From a virus (taxonomy: Duplodnaviria; Heunggongvirae; Uroviricota; Caudoviricetes), in the IMG/VR virus record IMGVR_UViG_2718218136_000009, positions 1 through 13,902 of that record: a stretch of 13,902 nt of DNA; one strand, given 5' to 3'. Position 1 is the first letter of the stretch; each line of letters starts with the position of its first letter. Position numbers and translations under genes: made by a program. This document shows, piece after piece, positions 1-11,491 of this stretch. The notes beneath the pieces were generated by a model. That model searched no databases. It had not been told where the DNA came from and saw only the letters and a list, made by a program, of their open reading frames with translations.

Positions 1-1230
1 ATGAGCAGAGCACTTAACAAACTGAGCGATACACAGCTAAGAAAAATCAACGGCACACCAGCCCCAAAAACCACATTTCTTAATGACGGTGGAAACCTGA
101 GTATCAGACACTCCACCAGCGGCCTGTTAACCTGGTATTTCACCTACAGGGCAGGAACAGGACGCCAGGTATCACCGGAACGCCTGAAACTGGGAAATTA
201 TCCTGATCTGAGCCTGAAAGCAGCCAGGGAAAAAGCAGCACAGTGTCGCGCATGGCTGGCAGAGGGAAAAAATCCACGCCATGAGCTTAATTACTCCATA
301 CAGGAAGCACTAAAGCCGGTAACGGTGGGCGATGCGATCAGCTACTGGCTGGAAATGCACGTAAAGGAAAACCGTGTCGATTACGTCTCCCTGAAAAGCC
401 GCCTGAATAATCACGTCATACAGCATATTGGCAATATGCCACTGGATAAATGCGAGTTACGTCACTGGCTGGCCTGTTTTGACCGGATACGCAAAAAATC
501 ACCCGTAACATCTGGCCACATGATGCAGGCGTGCAAACAGGCGCTTAAGTTCTGCCGTAAACGTCGCTACGCAGTCAGTAACGTTCTGGATGATCTCAAC
601 GTGGTGGACGTTGGCAAAAAGCCGGGCATAAGCGAACGCGTGCTTAGTAACAAAGAACTGGGCGAATTATTACAGGCACTGGATAAAAAAATATTCCCAC
701 CCTACTACAGCGCACTAATCCGCCTCCTGATTGTGTTTGGCTGCCGAACCGGAGAACTGAGGCTGTCGGAGATCAGGGAGTGGGATTTTAAGGAAATGCT
801 CTGGACGGTACCGAAAGAACACAGCAAAACGAAGGTCGCCATATTCAGGCCAATACCGGAAAGCATTTTACCGTTCGTCACGCTGCTGGTGGAGCAGAAC
901 AAACACACAGGGCTATTACTCGGGGAACAGAAACAGGAAGCCAGCGTGTCGCAATACGGCAGATTCATGCACAAAAAATTAAACCATTCGCACTGGTCAC
1001 TACACGATATACGGCGCACGTTTACCACGATGCTGAACGATTTAGGCGTGGATCCGCATATTGTCGAACAACTCACCGCTCACCAGATGCCAGGGATGCA
1101 GCGAGTCTATAACCACTCCCGTTATCTCGATGCGAAACGTAACGCGCTGGATATGTGGACAGAGCGATTAGAGATACTGGCAGGTGCTCACGAAAACGTA
1201 ACCACACTGCCAATAGCCAGAGAAATATAA
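1..1230 (+). CDS. int: Tyrosine-type site-specific integrase (P4-like phage integrase family)
   Basis: 409-aa ORF starting at ATG. N-terminal arm-binding-like region (LSIRHSTSGLLTWYFTYR). Catalytic-domain motifs GCRTGEL (box I Arg), HDIRRTF (box II His-x-x-Arg) and a C-terminal Tyr region (VYNHSRY). Size typical of P4-type integrases. Confidence 0.9.
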   Translation: MSRALNKLSDTQLRKINGTPAPKTTFLNDGGNLSIRHSTSGLLTWYFTYRAGTGRQVSPERLKLGNYPDLSLKAAREKAAQCRAWLAEGKNPRHELNYSIQEALKPVTVGDAISYWLEMHVKENRVDYVSLKSRLNNHVIQHIGNMPLDKCELRHWLACFDRIRKKSPVTSGHMMQACKQALKFCRKRRYAVSNVLDDLNVVDVGKKPGISERVLSNKELGELLQALDKKIFPPYYSALIRLLIVFGCRTGELRLSEIREWDFKEMLWTVPKEHSKTKVAIFRPIPESILPFVTLLVEQNKHTGLLLGEQKQEASVSQYGRFMHKKLNHSHWSLHDIRRTFTTMLNDLGVDPHIVEQLTAHQMPGMQRVYNHSRYLDAKRNALDMWTERLEILAGAHENVTTLPIAREI

Positions 1231-1254: not shown

Positions 1255-1313
1255 GAAACAACGTGAAACAACGAGACACCACGACGAACAACGGCGAACA
1301 ATCTGGAACAAAC
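1255..1313. repeat. Six tandem 10-bp-phased GAACAA-core repeats between int and alpA
   Basis: Units begin at about 1255, 1265, 1275 (degenerate GACACCAC), 1285, 1295 and 1305: GGAAACAACG, TGAAACAACG, AGACACCACG, ACGAACAACG, GCGAACAATC, TGGAACAAAC. Preceded by T-tracts at 1231-1247. Confidence 0.75.
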
Positions 1314-1597: not shown

Positions 1598-1786
1598 GTG
1601 TTAAGCACAGATCGCTTTATACGTGAAAAAGAATGTCAGCAACTTACAGGCCTGAGCCGCTCATGTCGGTACCGCCTGGAAAAAGCCGGACAATTCCCAT
1701 CACGGCGTAAGCTCGGCGGTCGTTCTGTTGGCTGGTCTTTATCCGAAGTTCTGGCATGGAAGGACAGCTGCGAGGCAGTTCACTAA
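1598..1786 (+). CDS. alpA: AlpA-family (excisionase-like, MerR-superfamily HTH) transcriptional regulator
   Basis: Sequence DRFIREKECQQLTGLSRSCRYRLEKAGQFPSRRKLGGRSVGWSLSEVLAWK matches the AlpA/prophage regulatory protein pattern (HTH followed by SVGW...E...W). Start chosen at in-frame GTG 1598 after SD AAAGGGGG (1586-1593), giving 62 aa. The upstream ATG at 1430 would add a low-complexity 56-aa extension with no SD. Confidence 0.8.
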   Translation: MLSTDRFIREKECQQLTGLSRSCRYRLEKAGQFPSRRKLGGRSVGWSLSEVLAWKDSCEAVH

Positions 1787-3584: not shown

Positions 3585-3884
3585 ATGAAACAGAAAAATT
3601 CTGGCTTTACTGCCAGCGGCTCCGCTCGGCCTGAAATCCGCCCCGGCGATATTTTCCGGGATAACTACGGCGGCACGGTAACGATTAAAAGCGTGGCGGG
3701 ACGGTGTGTTACTTACCGCCGTGAAGGTTATGACTATGACTGCGTGATGCCTGTTTATCAGTTCCGCCGTGATTTTTCTCTGGTACAGGCAGCGCAACGC
3801 AGTAAGCCCACCAGCAGGGAAAAAGCACGGGAAAATATTAAGAAAATAAAAAGCATGCTCAGCGCATCCAGAGGTAAAAAATGA
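3585..3884 (+). CDS. Hypothetical protein (99 aa)
   Basis: SD GAGGAA (3571-3576) eight nt upstream of the ATG. Stop overlaps the Rep start (ATGA). Confidence 0.55.
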   Translation: MKQKNSGFTASGSARPEIRPGDIFRDNYGGTVTIKSVAGRCVTYRREGYDYDCVMPVYQFRRDFSLVQAAQRSKPTSREKARENIKKIKSMLSASRGKK

Positions 3885-5287
3885 AACTGGCACCGAACGT
3901 AAAACTGTTACCGAAAGATAAACACACTGAGGCGGTTATTTTTGCGGGTGATAATGCTCACTCCTTTGCAGAACATTACATGATTGCACAGGCCAAAAAA
4001 GCAGGCGATCCCATCCCTCCGGTTTACCTGGGCCGTTATCAGTTAAGCGAACTGGACAATTTACAGATTGTTGATGAAGGACGATACAGAGCAAAGGTCA
4101 TACGCGCCGGAAACCTGGACGATATGCAGATGCTGACCATTGCCACAAAACTGGCGATCGCAGGTGTCCGGGAAGCGCGGTTACTTTCAGAGAATTTCGA
4201 ACTACTGGAGGACTGGGGCGAGCAACTACCGCGCCTTAAAGAAACCTGGGAACGTGGGGAAAGCCTGGTCATGAATGGCGGAAAGCGAAAAATCACACTT
4301 CCCATCTCATGGGGTTCTGAGGGATTCGACGCGCAGCAAAGCTACGTAATTAAGGGGCTTATTCCGGCTGAATCATTATGCAGCACCTACGGGGCCAGCG
4401 GCTCTTATAAATCGTTCCTGGCTATTTCCTGGTCGTGCCATGTTGCCACAGGTATGGCATGGGGAGGCCGCAGGGTCAGTAAGGGCGCGGTTATCTATAT
4501 CGCTGGTGAAGGCAGCATGGGCGTAAAACGCCGCGTTAAGGCGTGGGAGATAACCCACGACAAGGTGGTTACAGATTTGTGCATCATTAACGCGCCTGTC
4601 TTCCCTGCATCGCCTGACTATGTGGAGCAGGTTATCAGAACTGCCGGACTTGTTAAGAGCAGAACGGGCGAAAATGTGCGGCTGATTGTGATAGACACGC
4701 TGGCCCGTTGCTTTGGTGGGAATGATGAAAATGATTCCCGTGATATGGGCGCATTTATCCAGGGGTGTGACGCGATAAAGCAGGCCACAGGGGCCACGGT
4801 GCTGGTGGTTCACCATTCCGGCAAGGATGAAACAAAGGGGGCGCGTGGTTCCAGCGCATTCCGTGCCGCACTGGATGCAGAGTACCGAATCAGCCGGGAA
4901 AATTCAGACGTTACAGCACTGGTGGCGGCGTGTACGAAGATGAAGGACGCAGAGGAGCCAAAAGAAAGCGCATACGACCTTAAAAGCGTGGAGGTGTTTA
5001 CCGATACAGATGGCGAAGAGATTGTGTCCATGGTGGTGATTGACGTTCCCCGCGCCCCTGCTGAACTGGAACGCATCGAGGAGGCCGGGAACAAGACGGA
5101 AAATCACACGGCTTTATGGGGTTGTATCCGATCACGTATACAGCATGGTGATAAATGCACGATCCCGTTGCTACGTGACGACATGAAAAAGCTGGGATAT
5201 GACACAAAACACCTTAAACGATGGTTAGCAAAACTGGAAAAAGACGGCGTGATTTGCGTCGATGGGGATGATGTTCACCCACTGTAA
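3881..5287 (+). CDS. RecA-like/AAA_25-type P-loop ATPase with C-terminal winged-helix region; candidate replication initiator or helicase (Rep)
   Basis: 468 aa. Walker A GASGSYKSF, Walker B LIVIDTLARC, and VLVVHHSGKD as in RepA/DnaB-C-like ATPases. SD GAGG six nt upstream. An iteron array follows the stop directly. Confidence 0.8.
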   Translation: MKLAPNVKLLPKDKHTEAVIFAGDNAHSFAEHYMIAQAKKAGDPIPPVYLGRYQLSELDNLQIVDEGRYRAKVIRAGNLDDMQMLTIATKLAIAGVREARLLSENFELLEDWGEQLPRLKETWERGESLVMNGGKRKITLPISWGSEGFDAQQSYVIKGLIPAESLCSTYGASGSYKSFLAISWSCHVATGMAWGGRRVSKGAVIYIAGEGSMGVKRRVKAWEITHDKVVTDLCIINAPVFPASPDYVEQVIRTAGLVKSRTGENVRLIVIDTLARCFGGNDENDSRDMGAFIQGCDAIKQATGATVLVVHHSGKDETKGARGSSAFRAALDAEYRISRENSDVTALVAACTKMKDAEEPKESAYDLKSVEVFTDTDGEEIVSMVVIDVPRAPAELERIEEAGNKTENHTALWGCIRSRIQHGDKCTIPLLRDDMKKLGYDTKHLKRWLAKLEKDGVICVDGDDVHPL

Positions 5288-5488
5288 AAAGTGGGCGTTA
5301 AAAGTGGGAATAGTGGGTAATTTAACCGAAATTTAACAAAATCGCCCACTTTCCCACGTGTATACATCCAAAAAAGTGGGCACTAAAAAAATACTTATGA
5401 AACAGTACGATATAAAACCACAAAATCCCAGGTGGGACGAAGTGGGAAACCATGAAAAGTGGGCAGAAAAAGTGGGCACAGGTGGGCG
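5286..5488. repeat. Iteron array (about 11 copies of A/G-GTGGG, consensus AAAGTGGGCA) with central AT-rich segment; candidate replication origin
   Basis: AGTGGG cores at 5290, 5303, 5312, 5375, 5441, 5458, 5471; GGTGGG at 5431 and 5481; inverted copies CCCACT at 5345-5350 and CCCAC at 5353-5357. AT-rich stretch 5384-5427 between the iteron groups. Position is immediately 3' of the Rep gene. Confidence 0.7.
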
Positions 5489-5489
5489 C

Positions 5490-5741
5490 ATGACAAGAAA
5501 AACCAGAGATAAGACAGCACCAAAATATAAAGCGTTAGACATGACAGAGCACGCCTTAAAGGTGGCAATCAGAACGATAGACCGCCACGCCGGGGAAGGA
5601 TACGCGAAAGCACATCCCGAACTGATAAGCGCATTCATGACCACGACGGCGGCAAACTTTGCCACGCTGACAGAACGGGAGATTGCCGAAGCGGAACAGG
5701 TGACAACCATCAACGTTAAAACCGGAGAGCATACAGCATGA
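5490..5741 (+). CDS. Hypothetical protein (83 aa from ATG 5490)
   Basis: The reading frame opens at GTG 5358 inside the iterons. ATG 5490 follows the last iteron and AGGTGGG. ATG 5398 and 5541 are alternatives. Stop overlaps the SSB start. Confidence 0.4.
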   Translation: MTRKTRDKTAPKYKALDMTEHALKVAIRTIDRHAGEGYAKAHPELISAFMTTTAANFATLTEREIAEAEQVTTINVKTGEHTA

Positions 5742-6163
5742 CAGCACAGATAGCGGCTTACGGGCGGCTGGTGGCTGACCCGCAGTTAAAGACCACCAGC
5801 AAAGGGACACAAATGGCGATGGCGAGTATGGCGGTTCCCCTGCCGTGCAGCCAGGCCGATGACGGAACGGCGACGATGTGGTTATCCGTCCTGGCGTTTG
5901 GCAGACAGGCCGACGCACTGGCAAAGCACCACAAAGGCGAACTCGTGAGCGTGGCGGGTAACATGCAGGTAAGCCAGTGGACAGGCCAGAACGGCGAAAC
6001 GCGGCAGGGCTGGCAGGTTATCGCAGACAGTGTAATCAGTGCCAGAACGGCGCGACCGGGCGGCAAAAAAGGCCAGCAGGGCCAGGCCACTGACGCACTG
6101 AACAGGGCAAAACAACAGACAGGCCAGCACGATGACCCGTACGGGGACGGGATACCGTTTTAA
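5738..6163 (+). CDS. ssb: Single-stranded DNA-binding protein (SSB-like)
   Basis: 141 aa. OB-fold-like core (AAYGRLVADPQLK..., WLSVLAFGRQADALAKHHKGELVSVAGNMQVSQWTGQNGETRQ) and acidic C-terminal tail ending DGIPF, as in the bacterial SSB D-D-D-I-P-F tip. SD GGAGAG upstream. Confidence 0.8.
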   Translation: MTAQIAAYGRLVADPQLKTTSKGTQMAMASMAVPLPCSQADDGTATMWLSVLAFGRQADALAKHHKGELVSVAGNMQVSQWTGQNGETRQGWQVIADSVISARTARPGGKKGQQGQATDALNRAKQQTGQHDDPYGDGIPF

Positions 6164-6199: not shown

Positions 6200-6730
6200 A
6201 TGACAAAGATGACCATTAACCGAAAACCGAAAGGCATTTACGGCACGCCGCAGAAAATACCGCAGGCGGCACAGCAGCAGGATAAAACCACATCGGCGCA
6301 TAAAGTGATACCCGGCAATCAGAACGCACAGCAGAAACCCACAGGGGCGACAGCGTGGCGGCATATGACCAAACGCCAGCGCAAAAACCGCAGACGCGTT
6401 AACCGCCTTATTGAATTGTGGCCAGAATTATTCAGCCGGGAAGCACCGAAGCCGCTTAAGGTGGGGATATTCGACGACCTGATGCAGGATATCGCCGCCA
6501 GGGGGCTGACATTCGGGCCGGGGGCATTACGTGCGACGCTGGCATCCTATGCGCAGTCTCCGCGCTATTACCGCGCCTTAATAGCTGGTGGGGTACGCTA
6601 CGACCTGAAAGGCCAGCCATGTGGGGAAGTGACACCACAGGAACAGCAGGAGGCAGAAACGCGGCTGATGGCGCTGAATGAGAAGCACAAGCGCCAGCGC
6701 CGGGCAGCAAAGGGGGATACATGCCAGTGA
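6200..6730 (+). CDS. ProQ/FinO-family RNA-binding protein (FinO domain)
   Basis: 176 aa. Segment LFSREAPKPLKVGIFDDLMQDIAARGL...LRATLASYAQSPRYYRALIAGGVRYDLKGQPCGEVT aligns by eye with the E. coli ProQ N-terminal domain ([23 protein letters not shown]...LRSALRLYTSSWRYLYGV...RVDLDGNPCGEL). Basic, disordered N-terminal extension. ATG 6209 is an alternative start. Confidence 0.8.
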   Translation: MTKMTINRKPKGIYGTPQKIPQAAQQQDKTTSAHKVIPGNQNAQQKPTGATAWRHMTKRQRKNRRRVNRLIELWPELFSREAPKPLKVGIFDDLMQDIAARGLTFGPGALRATLASYAQSPRYYRALIAGGVRYDLKGQPCGEVTPQEQQEAETRLMALNEKHKRQRRAAKGDTCQ

Positions 6731-6969
6731 CATTTGAAGAAGTTCAGCAACATAAAAAGTTTCATGGTTTTGATGATCTGGAAACCACGACAGCAAAAAA
6801 ATATCGCCGTCTGCTTTCTTCCGATGCGTTGTTTGTTGTGGATCATCATGATTTTCTGCGCAGCTCACTGACCGGGGAAATTTTCGCAACCAACCGTGAG
6901 CAGGTGGAAGCGATGATCGAATATCTGTGGAAAATAAGACGCAGAATGCGGGATCCAGTGAAACAATAA
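6721..6969 (+). CDS. Hypothetical protein (82 aa)
   Basis: Start overlaps the ProQ/FinO stop (ATGCCAGTGA). SD AGGGGG upstream. Last gene of the early operon. Confidence 0.5.
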   Translation: MPVTFEEVQQHKKFHGFDDLETTTAKKYRRLLSSDALFVVDHHDFLRSSLTGEIFATNREQVEAMIEYLWKIRRRMRDPVKQ

Positions 6970-7024
6970 AGCGATAAAGGCCTGGATTTTTTTTCAGGTC
7001 TTTTTTTCAGGTTTTGTAAATTAT

Positions 7025-7050
7025 TTGTTCGTGGTTGTTCCAGGTTGTTC
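7025..7050. repeat. Three TTGTTC repeats at exact 10-bp phasing upstream of the capsid operon (reverse complement of the int-alpA GAACAA repeats)
   Basis: TTGTTC at 7025-7030, 7035-7040 and 7045-7050. The reverse complement cGAACAAcctgGAACAAccacGAACAA closely matches 1285-1313 (cGAACAAcggcGAACAAtctgGAACAA). Tandem TTTTTTTCAGGT repeats sit just upstream at 6987-7012. Confidence 0.7.
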
Positions 7051-7244
7051 GGTGATTCTGGCTGATGTTTACATACTGATTTTTATGTATATGTTGGCGT
7101 GTGGCACTCAGACGTGAGCCGCCACAATGCCGCCTGACCCCCTGCGCGATGCCGGGTTGATCTGCGAGATGCCGAGAGTGTCGGGCGGCGCTCCCTCCGT
7201 GTTGGTTTCACGTCCTGAATCTTAACCAATACGAGAAAACCTTC

Positions 7245-8414
7245 ATGAAGAAATTAATCGAACTCCGCCAGCAAAAAACCGCCCTGAAAAACCAGATGCG
7301 ATCCCTGCTGGAAAAAGCCGACAGTGAAAACCGCAGCCTGAACGATGACGAGGGCAAACAGTTTGATGAACTGCGTGCAAAAGCCGATTCCCTCGACACA
7401 GAAATTTCCCGCCTCGAGTCTGTGGCTGATGAAGAACGCAGCAAGCCAGGAACGGGCATCCAGAAATTATCATCTGATGAATTGCGTAACTATATCGTAA
7501 CCGGAGATGTGCGATCACTGTCCACCAGCACTGACAGCGGCAGGGATGGCGGATATACCGTAATTCCTGAGCTTGATCGCGAAGTCATGCGCCAGCTACA
7601 GGATGACAGTGTTATGCGCGTGATCGCGACCGTGAAGACCGCAAAATCAAATGAGTTTCAGAAACTGGTTTCCACTGGCGGCGCAACTGTAGGAAGAGGC
7701 ACAGAAGGCAGCGCGCGCAGCGAAACCAACACCCCGAAAATTGAACGCGTAACCATCAAGCTGAATCCGATCTACGCCTACCCGAAAACCACGCAGGAAA
7801 TCCTGGATTTTTCAGAGGTGGATATTCTGGGCTGGTTATCCTCCGAAATTGCCGACACGTTCGCCAGCACCGAAGAGGATGATTTTGTTAATGGCGACGG
7901 TAACGGCAAGCCGAAAGGATTCATGGCTTACACCCGTGCGGCGACCAGTGACAAAACCCGCGCTTTTGGCACCATTGAAAAAATGGTAGCGGCAAGTGGA
8001 ACCGCCATTACAGCGGACGAACTGATCGACATTCTCTACAAGCTGAAAGCGAAATACCGCAAAAATGCCGTCTGGGTGATGAACTCGGGCACGGCAGGGA
8101 CACTACAGAAGCTGAAAAATGAGAACGGCGATTATATCTGGCGCGACAGCCTTAAAGAAGGTGCGCCGGATATGTTGCTTGGTCGTCCTGTTTACTGCCT
8201 GGAGTCCATGCCGGACATCGGCGCAGGAAAAGCACCGCTAGCGGTTGGCGATTTCAGTCGTGGTTATTTCATCGTTGATCATGTAACAGGGATTCGCACC
8301 CGACCGGACAACATTACTGAACCCGGATTCTACAAGGTCCACACGGATAAATATCTGGGCGGTGGTGTGGTGGATTCAAACGCCATCAAAATTCTGGAAA
8401 TGAAAGCTGGCTAG
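7245..8414 (+). CDS. Phage major capsid protein, HK97 family
   Basis: 389 aa. N-terminal coiled-coil delta-domain-like region (MKKLIELRQQKTALKNQMRSLLEKADSE...LRAKADSLDTEISRLE) followed by a capsid-fold-sized body. Immediately upstream of the prohead protease and portal genes. Confidence 0.85.
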   Translation: MKKLIELRQQKTALKNQMRSLLEKADSENRSLNDDEGKQFDELRAKADSLDTEISRLESVADEERSKPGTGIQKLSSDELRNYIVTGDVRSLSTSTDSGRDGGYTVIPELDREVMRQLQDDSVMRVIATVKTAKSNEFQKLVSTGGATVGRGTEGSARSETNTPKIERVTIKLNPIYAYPKTTQEILDFSEVDILGWLSSEIADTFASTEEDDFVNGDGNGKPKGFMAYTRAATSDKTRAFGTIEKMVAASGTAITADELIDILYKLKAKYRKNAVWVMNSGTAGTLQKLKNENGDYIWRDSLKEGAPDMLLGRPVYCLESMPDIGAGKAPLAVGDFSRGYFIVDHVTGIRTRPDNITEPGFYKVHTDKYLGGGVVDSNAIKILEMKAG

Positions 8415-10882: not shown

Positions 10883-11322
10883 TGCCATGGCAACCATTAA
10901 GGCGATGCACTGAGCCGGGCTGTAATAAGCGCGTGAAGTCCGGCAAGTGTGAAGAGCACAGGCGGGCTGCATGGCGTGCAGAGGATGCCAGACGGGGACA
11001 CCGCCGCGCACGTGGGTATTCCCGACTGTGGGACAAATACCGCGCCATGTACCTGAAAAAAAATCCGTTATGCGTGCGTTGTCTGGCTAAGGGTATTTAT
11101 ACGCCAGCTCTTGTGGTGGATCACATCATTCCCATCAATGGCGGCGGTGATGTTCTCTTCTGGCCTGAGTGGAACCACCAGGCATTGTGCCAGACGTGCC
11201 ACAACCGTAAGACGACACGGGAAGATCCAGCCACGAAAGCGAACCGTAAGGCGGGCATGTATCGCGAGCAGGAAGAACGGGCGGCACATCGTAACGACTG
11301 GATGTATGGCGATGATGACTGA
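10882..11322 (+). CDS. HNH endonuclease, phage packaging-associated
   Basis: 146 aa. Cys pairs (CTEPGC...CEEH; CVRC) and HNH core VVDHIIPINGGGD...NHQALCQTCHNRKT. ATG overlaps the upstream stop by 1 nt (TGATG). Sits directly upstream of TerS and TerL. Confidence 0.85.
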   Translation: MPWQPLRRCTEPGCNKRVKSGKCEEHRRAAWRAEDARRGHRRARGYSRLWDKYRAMYLKKNPLCVRCLAKGIYTPALVVDHIIPINGGGDVLFWPEWNHQALCQTCHNRKTTREDPATKANRKAGMYREQEERAAHRNDWMYGDDD

Positions 11323-11491
11323 ACAGGAGCAAAACAGGCTGATACGTGGACTGATAAGGCAGCGTGACTTATGGAAGACACAGGAGACAGGGCACAAAGC
11401 CAACAGGACAGAGCGCACAGAACGCACCACAGCGAAGCGATTAACCGACCGTGACCGCGAGGTCATGGAATGTTTTCGCAATCGCTGGTGA
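11306..11491 (+). CDS. Possible small ORF (61 aa) overlapping the HNH 3' end
   Basis: ATG 11306 in the +1 frame relative to HNH (MAMMTEQEQNRLIRGL...). No clear SD and no family recognised. May be non-coding. Confidence 0.25.
   Translation: MAMMTEQEQNRLIRGLIRQRDLWKTQETGHKANRTERTERTTAKRLTDRDREVMECFRNRW

Follow-up and report, generated by a model that had tools for sequence, protein, structure and literature searches.

Gene content of the satellite

The window, by which we mean the whole stretch of 13,902 nucleotides that was analyzed, is, judging from its gene content, a capsid-forming PICI satellite (cf-PICI). Pfam annotation recovered int, alpA, a replication module, and genes for the capsid, protease, portal, connectors, HNH, TerS, and TerL, and it returned no tail or lysis genes in the window. 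The cf-PICI family, including such a gene content, has been described previously (bioRxiv 10.1101/2022.09.08.507074). The genes referred to below are as follows.

1 to 1230, plus strand: tyrosine integrase gene (int), with an N-terminal Arm-DNA-bind_3 domain (Pfam)
1598 to 1786, plus strand: alpA, encoding a 62-amino-acid winged-helix protein (PF05930, E = 3e-18)
3585 to 3884: DUF4222 protein (Pfam)
3881 to 5287: replication protein of the AAA_25/RepA type (Pfam)
5738 to 6163: SSB (Pfam)
6200 to 6730: ProQ/FinO-domain protein (Pfam)
6721 to 6969: orf82, a member of PHROG 1957, where no function is assigned; its stop codon is at 6969
7245 to 8414, plus strand: major capsid protein gene (PF05065, E = 2e-71)
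7245 onward: late genes, encoding an HK97-type capsid, prohead protease, portal, head completion protein, connector, HNH, TerS, and TerL (Pfam)

The major capsid gene heads the late operon, which carries both capsid and packaging functions. The late region occurs in 155 of 5426 complete E. coli genomes, and the int-alpA region occurs in 341. The window opens at the ATG of int, and the att arms lie outside it; the full element of the window is seen in locus L243.

Phased repeat arrays in the window

Two arrays of short repeats, one ahead of the capsid gene and one between int and alpA, are the subject of this analysis.

7025 to 7051, plus strand: late array, three phased repeats (TTGTTCG, TTGTTCC, and TTGTTCG) at 10-bp spacing
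1256 to 1311, minus strand: int-alpA array, six 10-bp units (three of TTGTTC, one of TGGTGT, and two of TTGTTT)

The first-pass annotation of this DNA had noted TTGTTC three times at exact 10-bp spacing about 200 bp upstream of the capsid start, and this was confirmed: the hexamers lie at 7025-7030, 7035-7040, and 7045-7050 on the plus strand, 195 to 220 bp 5' of the capsid ATG at 7245. The second array adjoins the stop codon of int, with alpA about 290 bp downstream; its minus-strand TTGTTC hexamers are at 1311-1306, 1301-1296, and 1291-1286, and TGGTGT, TTGTTT, and TTGTTT then continue in phase to 1256. Together, the two arrays form a 28-nt inverted repeat with 79% complementarity. The hexamers agree fully, but the 4-nt spacers do not, and the earlier statement that one matches the reverse complement of the other "almost base for base" therefore goes slightly too far.

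As a word, TTGTTC is not overrepresented in the window (11 copies, with 9.9 expected). A scan for triplets of near-identical hexamers at 10- to 11-bp spacing recovered the late and int-alpA arrays as the only two clusters in the 13.9 kb. Of 1500 first-order Markov simulations, 4 produced an exact hexamer in three copies spaced by 10 bp (mean, 0.0027 arrays per sequence), and none of the 1500 simulated sequences contained two such arrays; the phased arrangement of both arrays is far from chance. Among five E. coli variants of the int-alpA array (81 to 97% identity), 25 of 36 core positions were invariant, compared with 6 of 24 spacer positions (Fisher P value = 0.0013), a pattern that points to selection acting on the hexamer cores of this array, with the spacers free of it.

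The late promoter and its leader

The late array is embedded in a compact control region, which occupies the space between orf82 and the capsid gene.

6976 to 7007, plus strand: intrinsic terminator with an 11-bp stem, a U6 loop, and a U-run (-14.6 kcal/mol, z = -3.4)
7014 to 7021, plus strand: TTGTAAAT box, conserved more strongly than any other part of the late promoter
7068 to 7095, plus strand: sigma70-like late promoter, with a -35 element TTTACA (7068-7073), a 16-nt spacer, and a -10 element TATGTT (7090-7095)
7101 to 7244, plus strand: structured 5' leader of the capsid operon, comprising a P1 hairpin (7101-7125), a variable P2, and GGUUUCACGUC

Located between the orf82 stop codon and the box, the terminator, on the basis of its predicted energy, closes the early operon. 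The box lies 11 bp 5' of the first repeat and may itself be a fourth, 5'-most unit (GTAA). In the leader, GGUUUCACGUC is complementary to the apex of P1; a search of the whole window against Rfam, leader included, gave no match (E <= 1).

It had earlier been thought that no strong sigma70 promoter was evident here. We arrived at the opposite view, as TTTACA and TATGTT, 16 nt apart, match the consensus at 9 of 12 positions and stand at a fixed distance from the repeats in relatives. Transcription is predicted to start near 7102, which would center the three units at about -74.5, -64.5, and -54.5 and put the box near -85. The 3' end of the repeats is 17 bp short of the -35 element, with no overlap. 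Relative to this predicted start, the region thus has the elements of a class I upstream site, namely, a -10/-35 promoter preceded by sites beyond -40 on one face of the helix, and the position of the array is typical of upstream activator sites. We consider it very probable that the late promoter uses the repeats as a functional upstream site.

The geometry at the int-alpA array is different. The two arrays point in opposite directions with respect to the gene that follows each, and the int-alpA array lies about 200 bp 5' of the best predicted alpA promoter; the two sites therefore cannot share one geometry. Inspection by eye of the minus strand past the int-alpA array for a promoter with the late-promoter geometry gave only a weak TTCTAA-17-TATATT (1252-1224), which is out of register.

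Several other candidates were considered for this region. The dyad TGT-N12-ACA of the P2/P4 Ogr/Delta type is absent from 6900-7244, its four matches in the window lying elsewhere. A sigma54 promoter in the leader (TGGCAC, found by eye) was rejected, as the GC at -12 is absent and the GG is lost in variants. A role for the array as a cos/pac site for TerS was likewise rejected, since it goes against the gene order and similar arrays occur in the att arms; the gap between the HNH gene and terS (11322-11470) is the expected cos position in HK97-like modules. Finally, orf82 was rejected as a late regulator, having no Pfam domain and only its PHROG 1957 assignment and being missing from many elements that carry the box.

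Conservation of the layout in relatives

We fetched 80 loci encoding relatives of the capsid protein at 59 to 76% identity. The succession of terminator, box, repeats, and promoter is found again in Enterobacterales, Xenorhabdus/Photorhabdus, and some Pasteurellaceae, and two bacterial orders share the layout of terminator, promoter, and leader. Among 20 unique Enterobacterales promoters, the box hardly varies, and three KTWC units follow at +13, +23, and +33 from the start of the box, with their conserved C at +16, +26, and +36, i.e., at a strict 10-bp spacing. The distances from the box start to the -35 element (+54) and to the -10 element (+76) are fixed in relatives. A pattern scan of IMG/VR yielded 43 more loci in which the box is followed by a capsid gene, representing 23 unique promoters, all in the same register, which is therefore fixed in more than 40 promoters (20 from Enterobacterales and 23 from IMG/VR).

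There is also a second promoter class (class B), in which a GC hairpin with a T-run occupies the position of the -35 element. With the -35 element replaced in this way, class B promoters should therefore need activation. The type of array is independent of host genus, as can be seen by comparing L016/L017 with L018/L025 in Serratia and L008 with L009 in Kosakonia.

Putative excisionase and integrase sites in the att arms

Similar repeats are found in the att arms next to int. In L243, TTGTTCCAGCTTGTTCCACGTTGTAC lies just 5' of int (P' arm, 8316-8350), and EcCICFT073 and L083 carry phased TTGTT(C/T) triplets in both att arms, in each case beside a tandem pair of GGTGTAGTTAAT. The layout 5' of int is constant in relatives, with phased TGTTC-like triplets followed by a tandem pair that is specific to the integrase type and then by int itself, and the att-arm triplets are preceded by a box-like TTGCAAT or TTGTGAT at the same distance as in the late promoter. 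The tandem pairs are as follows.

GGTGTAGTTAAT: EcCICFT073 type
TGTGTATTGCA: L001 type
TGTATAAACA: L005, L007, and L013
GGTGTAGTC: L003, L009, L010, and L018
GGTGTATCAA: L011 and L012
GGTATCCTATA: L004, L014, L016, and L017
TAGTAATAC: Testudinibacter

On the basis of position and of the analogy with KplE1, the tandem pairs can be assigned as integrase arm sites and the phased triplets as excisionase sites. In KplE1, a prophage of E. coli K-12, the TorI sites, established by mutation, are GTTCG, GATCG, and GTCCG, with one three-site block adjoining the -35 element of PintS, and the arm sites of IntS have a different, TAAA-containing motif (PMC2951348). The TorI block of MG1655 reads acaGTTCGtcatgGTTCGcttcaGATCGTTGACA, with 10-bp spacing, and the units of the window to be compared with it are tTGTTCG, tTGTTCC, and tTGTTCG.

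AlpA as a predicted excisionase

The AlpA protein of the window is 100% identical to that of EcCICFT073, and the int-alpA spacer, array included, is about 90% identical to its counterpart there. AlpA belongs to PHROG 2790, annotated as "excisionase and transcriptional regulator." The best PDB matches of its AF2 model (pLDDT, 87.8) are excisionases, namely, 8c3t (TM 0.83/0.90), RdfS, Pukovnik Xis, and TorI (TM about 0.6), with further matches to MerR-type winged helices; from this predicted structure, AlpA is a small winged-helix protein with the excisionase fold. A literature search for a paper describing PDB entry 8c3t found none. In sequence, the similarity of AlpA to TorI is marginal (pairwise E value, 7e-5; hhalign probability, 18%); for this pair, the comparison of folds was more informative than the hhalign profile.

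In EcCICFT073, AlpA activates its own promoter region, leaves Pint unchanged, and alone triggers excision and replication (PMC6092414), and mutation of alpA abolishes cf-PICI induction (bioRxiv 10.1101/2022.09.08.507074). The AlpA of a Vibrio satellite, modeled as TorI-like, is both necessary and sufficient for excision (PMC10803314). The published autoactivation needs a site somewhere in the int-alpA spacer. In the literature searched, including the EcCICFT073 and cf-PICI studies just cited, we found neither an AlpA binding site nor a promoter of the cf-PICI capsid operon. The P. aeruginosa AlpA antiterminator was rejected as a model, as it is a far larger protein acting at a single GGGACG site between the -35 and -10 elements (PMC9371919).

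Comparison with known dual-function excisionases

Excisionases bind head to tail on direct repeats one turn apart and require at least three adjacent sites, and those of 186 (Apl), P2 (Cox), and P4 (Vis) also use att-like repeats to regulate promoters far from att (PMC7498355). Both arrays of the window consist of at least three direct repeats one helical turn (10 to 11 bp) apart. The likeness to Apl, Cox, and Vis, proteins compared here by their descriptions, lies in one-turn direct repeats at att and at distant promoters and in cooperative binding to at least three adjacent sites; unlike the window array, whose target would be the structural-gene operon of a satellite and whose predicted effect is activation, they act on the lysis-lysogeny switch or on early promoters, mostly as repressors. 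Cox does activate the P4 promoter PLL.

Close parallels come from TorI and attL of KplE1 (CPS-53), where a GTTCG core recurs in three sites at 10 bp beside a promoter, binding is by a small winged-helix protein, and a separate repeat serves as the integrase arm site. IntS also has the Arm-DNA-bind_3/Phage_int_M/Phage_integrase architecture of the window integrase. In contrast to the window arrays, of which one is at about -55 to -85 of the capsid promoter, 5.7 kb from int, and the other is downstream of int, the TorI sites abut the -35 element of PintS, repress it, and are known only in attL. The X1-X1.5-X2 micro-filament of lambda Xis is similar in having three head-to-tail winged-helix monomers on sites about 10 bp apart, with the DNA bent (PMC7498355), but Xis acts only at att. 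AlpA of EcCICFT073/EcCIEDL933, the master activator of Gram-negative PICIs, is another close comparison, the EcCICFT073 protein being identical in sequence, activating its own promoter region, and being needed for induction; unlike the window, EcCICFT073, a classical PICI, has no such array ahead of its late genes. By analogy, the array could be a new instance of the dual-function-excisionase principle known from Apl, Cox, Vis, and TorI, a proposition that we regard as evenly balanced.

A candidate AlpA operator at the late promoter

As the best explanation, we propose that the late repeats are an excisionase-type operator that is bound by AlpA and activates the late promoter. We regard this full proposal as about as likely as not, with the AlpA of the island itself as the most likely binder of the late repeats. 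The TTGTAAAT box would probably join the three TTGTTC(G/C) repeats in a phased operator whose units recur once per helical turn, of the kind that small winged-helix recombination directionality factors (excisionases) bind cooperatively, head to tail. This operator, at about -55 to -85, would serve a moderate sigma70-like promoter from which the capsid and packaging operon would be started. Binding of AlpA to the inverted, six-unit int-alpA array would account for its published autoactivation, and excision would be directed by its binding to the similar att-arm triplets. When the helper causes AlpA to rise, excision, further AlpA synthesis, and capsid and packaging expression would in this way be set off together. 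We infer AlpA binding, activation rather than repression, and the transcription start.

The idea that one regulator might serve both the integrase region and the head genes had been raised in the first-pass annotation. By analogy with the excisionases above, it fits the phased repeats, the att-arm triplets, and the identity of AlpA and is to that extent supported; the occurrence of the late array with other AlpA alleles counts against it.

Tests of covariation between arrays and regulators

In favor of AlpA as the reader of the late array, late arrays aligned better to the int-flanking arrays of their own element (mean local score, 9.52) than to those of others (8.60; permutation P value = 0.0005; shuffled control, 8.43 ± 0.19), in covariation tests (permutation and Fisher) that treated elements as independent and ignored their relatedness; a cruder test based on shared 6-mers between late and int-flanking arrays was not significant (P value = 0.06). 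In the Testudinibacter elements L068 and L034, where int lies directly 5' of the late promoter and alpA lies 3' of the packaging genes, the att-arm array TTGTTCGTAGCTTGTCGT recurs almost unchanged as the late array TTGTTCGTAGCCTATCGT. Two cf-PICI late modules whose capsids are only 64% identical, in both of which AlpA is identical or 93.5% identical, share an island of about 40 nt, comprising the box and the array, that is about 95% identical, and their core promoters and leaders are unalignable.

On the other side, the late array also occurs with other AlpA alleles. The late region is 100% identical in L001/H1, but it is accompanied there by a different integrase and two other AlpA-like genes; L001 has no second strict TTGTTC array, and its arm does hold CTTGTTCGTCG. 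L172 combines a window-type array with a 40%-identical AlpA, and L086 has a late array identical to that of the window with another early module and AlpA allele. Among 17 genome loci, regulator class was associated with array class, HTH_17 regulators going with TAC-type units (Fisher P value = 0.001, with the loci again counted as independent), but the link fails on 31 IMG/VR loci, in which both AlpA-ext regulators (13) and HTH_17 regulators (5) accompany TAC-type arrays. An array ahead of the late genes is absent from elements with an identical AlpA and other late modules (classical PICIs and the ClpP-capsid fusion type L240), and AlpA can therefore run the PICI cycle without a late array.

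Conservation is far higher in the TTGTAAAT box than in the AlpA-like proteins, which diverge fast, and this contrast hints at a second, conserved factor. Either the specificity of these filament-forming proteins is relaxed, as has been described for excisionases generally in the paper on 186 Apl (PMC7498355), or a different, more conserved factor reads the box and units.

Alternative readings of the late array

The second of these options would have the late array bound by a protein other than AlpA, either a host response regulator of the OmpR/PhoB type or a conserved protein encoded by the element or the helper. The site could then activate or repress, and its likeness to the int-alpA array would reflect a shared sequence taste of separate proteins. 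OmpR/PhoB-type regulators recognize direct repeats spaced by one turn; the half-site of ArcA is TGTTA, repeated at 11 bp, and TorR boxes read CTGTTCATAT. The box and first unit together (TGTAAATTATTTGTTC) agree with the ArcA consensus at 12 of 16 positions, and the near invariance of the box from E. coli to Pasteurellaceae while regulators diverge, along with the pairing of one late array with different AlpA alleles and HTH_17-type regulators, would be natural for such a factor. Against a host protein of this kind, the units vary between elements inside one host genus, which a fixed host factor would disfavor, their spacing is strictly 10 bp rather than 11, and similar triplets occupy the att arms exactly where the TorI sites were mapped. 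As for a protein of the element itself, orf82 is right 5' of the late promoter in many, though not all, relatives, but it is absent from Xenorhabdus, Pasteurellaceae, and several Enterobacterales that keep the box and has no match to a DNA-binding domain. Overall, we consider a binder other than AlpA somewhat unlikely.

The first option, relaxed specificity, leads to a broader and more speculative extension of the AlpA proposal, which we think is unlikely to hold in full. The box-plus-repeat segment of about 40 bp could be a portable enhancer, derived from an att arm and answering excisionase-type proteins, with the leader RNA as a second checkpoint on capsid synthesis. An HK97-like capsid module could then be plugged in behind almost any AlpA-family or HTH_17 early module, and it is the relaxed specificity of filament-forming proteins that would make such module swapping possible. 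The unannotated, covarying leader RNA (7101-7244) would possibly be read by the ProQ/FinO-like protein encoded just 5'.

AlpA might also bind the late array without activating it, acting as a repressor or insulator or only bending the DNA, with activation coming, for example, from the helper phage or the leader. There is precedent in TorI, which represses at PintS, and in Apl, which represses at pR/pL, most characterized excisionase-promoter interactions being repressive (PMC2951348; PMC7498355). The conserved, structured leader could hold the real switch, and the promoter itself comes with fair -35 and -10 elements. Yet the repeats stop 17 bp short of the -35 element, whereas the TorI sites abut it; class B relatives carry a hairpin and T-run at -35; and the genetics show AlpA to act positively on the whole cycle. 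This reading therefore seems to us quite improbable.

That the two TTGTTC clusters form a split replication element resembling P4 ori/crr and bound by the island's replication protein, the other suggestion of the first-pass annotation, is extremely improbable and was abandoned: the TGTTC core named in that annotation is all that is common to the P4 type I iterons, and some Pasteurellaceae relatives do carry AGTGTTCACT three times 5' of the late region, but the window has a separate cluster in which at least eight iterons of the form (A)GTGGG(C/A), facing both ways, surround an AT-rich stretch (5288-5490) directly 3' of the replication gene, the usual position of a PICI origin, and relatives have their own, different iterons at the same place. 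Unlike P4 ori/crr in arrangement, the late array accompanies replication proteins of three unrelated kinds (the AAA_25/RepA type of the window, a DUF927 protein in L001/L086, and the primase of L085), keeps a fixed register with the -35 and -10 elements, and has similar counterparts in the att arms.

Implications for capsid-forming satellites

cf-PICIs have been described only recently, and a map of candidate AlpA sites, together with a promoter for the capsid operon, is newly offered here. The candidate sites fall into three classes, located in the att arms, in the int-alpA spacer, and at the late promoter. If the proposal is true, it would supply a defined promoter and operator for the engineering of PICI-based delivery vehicles. 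If AlpA does bind all three classes, a single protein induced by the helper would set the timing of excision, of its own amplification, and of capsid production, which would explain how a capsid-building satellite keeps its capsids silent until a helper phage is present.

Transcription boundary and leader of the capsid operon

Two early genes, an intrinsic terminator and a structured leader surround the late promoter of the island.

Features flanking the late promoter (window coordinates)
6200-6730, ProQ/FinO-domain protein (PF04352, E = 4e-25)
6721-6969, the next gene, 82-aa protein of PHROG 1957, function unassigned in PHROG
6976-7007, intrinsic terminator with an 11-bp stem, U6 loop and U-run (-14.6 kcal/mol, z = -3.4)
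within 7101-7244, leader hairpin P1, GUGGC-A-CUCA-GACG-UGAG-CC-GCCAC

The ProQ/FinO-domain protein takes the slot held by PerC in related islands, and the PHROG 1957 protein is kept directly 5' of the late promoter in many, though not all, capsid-forming PICIs. The terminator, which was not picked up by the consensus terminator scan, lies between the final early gene and the conserved late-promoter box (7014-7021). Class B relatives have instead a GC hairpin and T-run between the -10 element and the repeats, occupying the -35 position.

The leader 5' of the capsid operon (7101-7244) is structured and conserved, and it has no match in Rfam. The apex of P1 is complementary to the leader segment GGUUUCACGUC, whose GGUUUC is predicted to be able to pair with GAAA(A)CC across the ribosome-binding site. 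P2 is a long, variable hairpin with both-side changes in seven of eight pairs (15 loci). Three-way covariation in the leader (A-U/U-A to C-G/G-C) was observed in the related loci L002, L017, and L025, possibly as one single event.

Exchange of late modules

The islands L001 and L086 (E. coli 181.1, PEC240) carry the capsid module of the window and are inserted within a prophage terminase large-subunit gene; they are apparently helper-embedded PICIs like those reported in PMC10111431. Compared with the window, their recombination breakpoint falls at the box, at window position 7012 (hit H16). A third kind of late module occurs in L240, an island with the identical AlpA, where a 638-aa ClpP-protease/capsid fusion (15497-17619 of that locus) replaces the HK97-type or lambda gpE-type genes, and no TTGTTC array was found upstream of the fusion gene.

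Other repeats in the islands

A tandem repeat pair lies immediately 5' of int and recurs at the island's other end. The pair differs by integrase type (GGTGTAGTTAAT, TGTGTATTGCA, and TGTATAAACA, among others), and these int-flanking pairs are probably integrase arm-type sites.

Copies of the tandem pair, examples from two of the related loci that have it (coordinates of each locus)
L082, 9855-9880 and 21074-21097
L001, 920-945 and 16120-16145

The annotated int start of L001 (845) reads through the arm with the tandem pair; translation of this gene probably begins at the ATG at 960 instead.

Five Pasteurellaceae relatives have a perfect 10-bp tandem in three copies, AGTGTTCACT (L071, L073, L075, L066, and L076; AGTATTCACA in L076), which is partly palindromic with the preceding GTGAACACT and is placed farther 5' of the late promoter (in L071 and L073 at roughly -243 to -218 relative to the capsid ATG). 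Its core is that of the P4 iterons as quoted in the first-pass annotation.

Directly 3' of the replication gene, the window has an origin-like region (5288-5490). Its (A)GTGGG(C/A) iterons, at least eight of them, occur in both orientations on either side of an AT-rich stretch (~5385-5425). The overlapping ORF at 5358-5741 is probably not a gene.

Possible control elements of alpA and alpA-like genes

About 40 nt 5' of an N-terminally extended AlpA-like gene (92-94 aa), a hairpin of the form CCCTCAC-aaaaacaattaaaca-GTGAGGG or CCTCCAC...GTGGAGG is conserved in L019, L020, L028, and other Xenorhabdus loci and in L012, L013, L015, and L025. The hairpin ends 4 nt from the ATG, and because the Shine-Dalgarno sequence is inside its 3' arm, it may gate translation of the AlpA-like gene that follows. 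Within the int-alpA spacer, the segment directly after the int-alpA array (1312-1355) has just 70% identity among E. coli variants; conservation among these variants is highest at 1370-1420, TTTTT(G/A)TACA(T/C)TGGCGAATCACTCTTAAAAA.ATGTAAAAAAGGCGTAAAA, which could be the point where a helper-phage signal acts on alpA.
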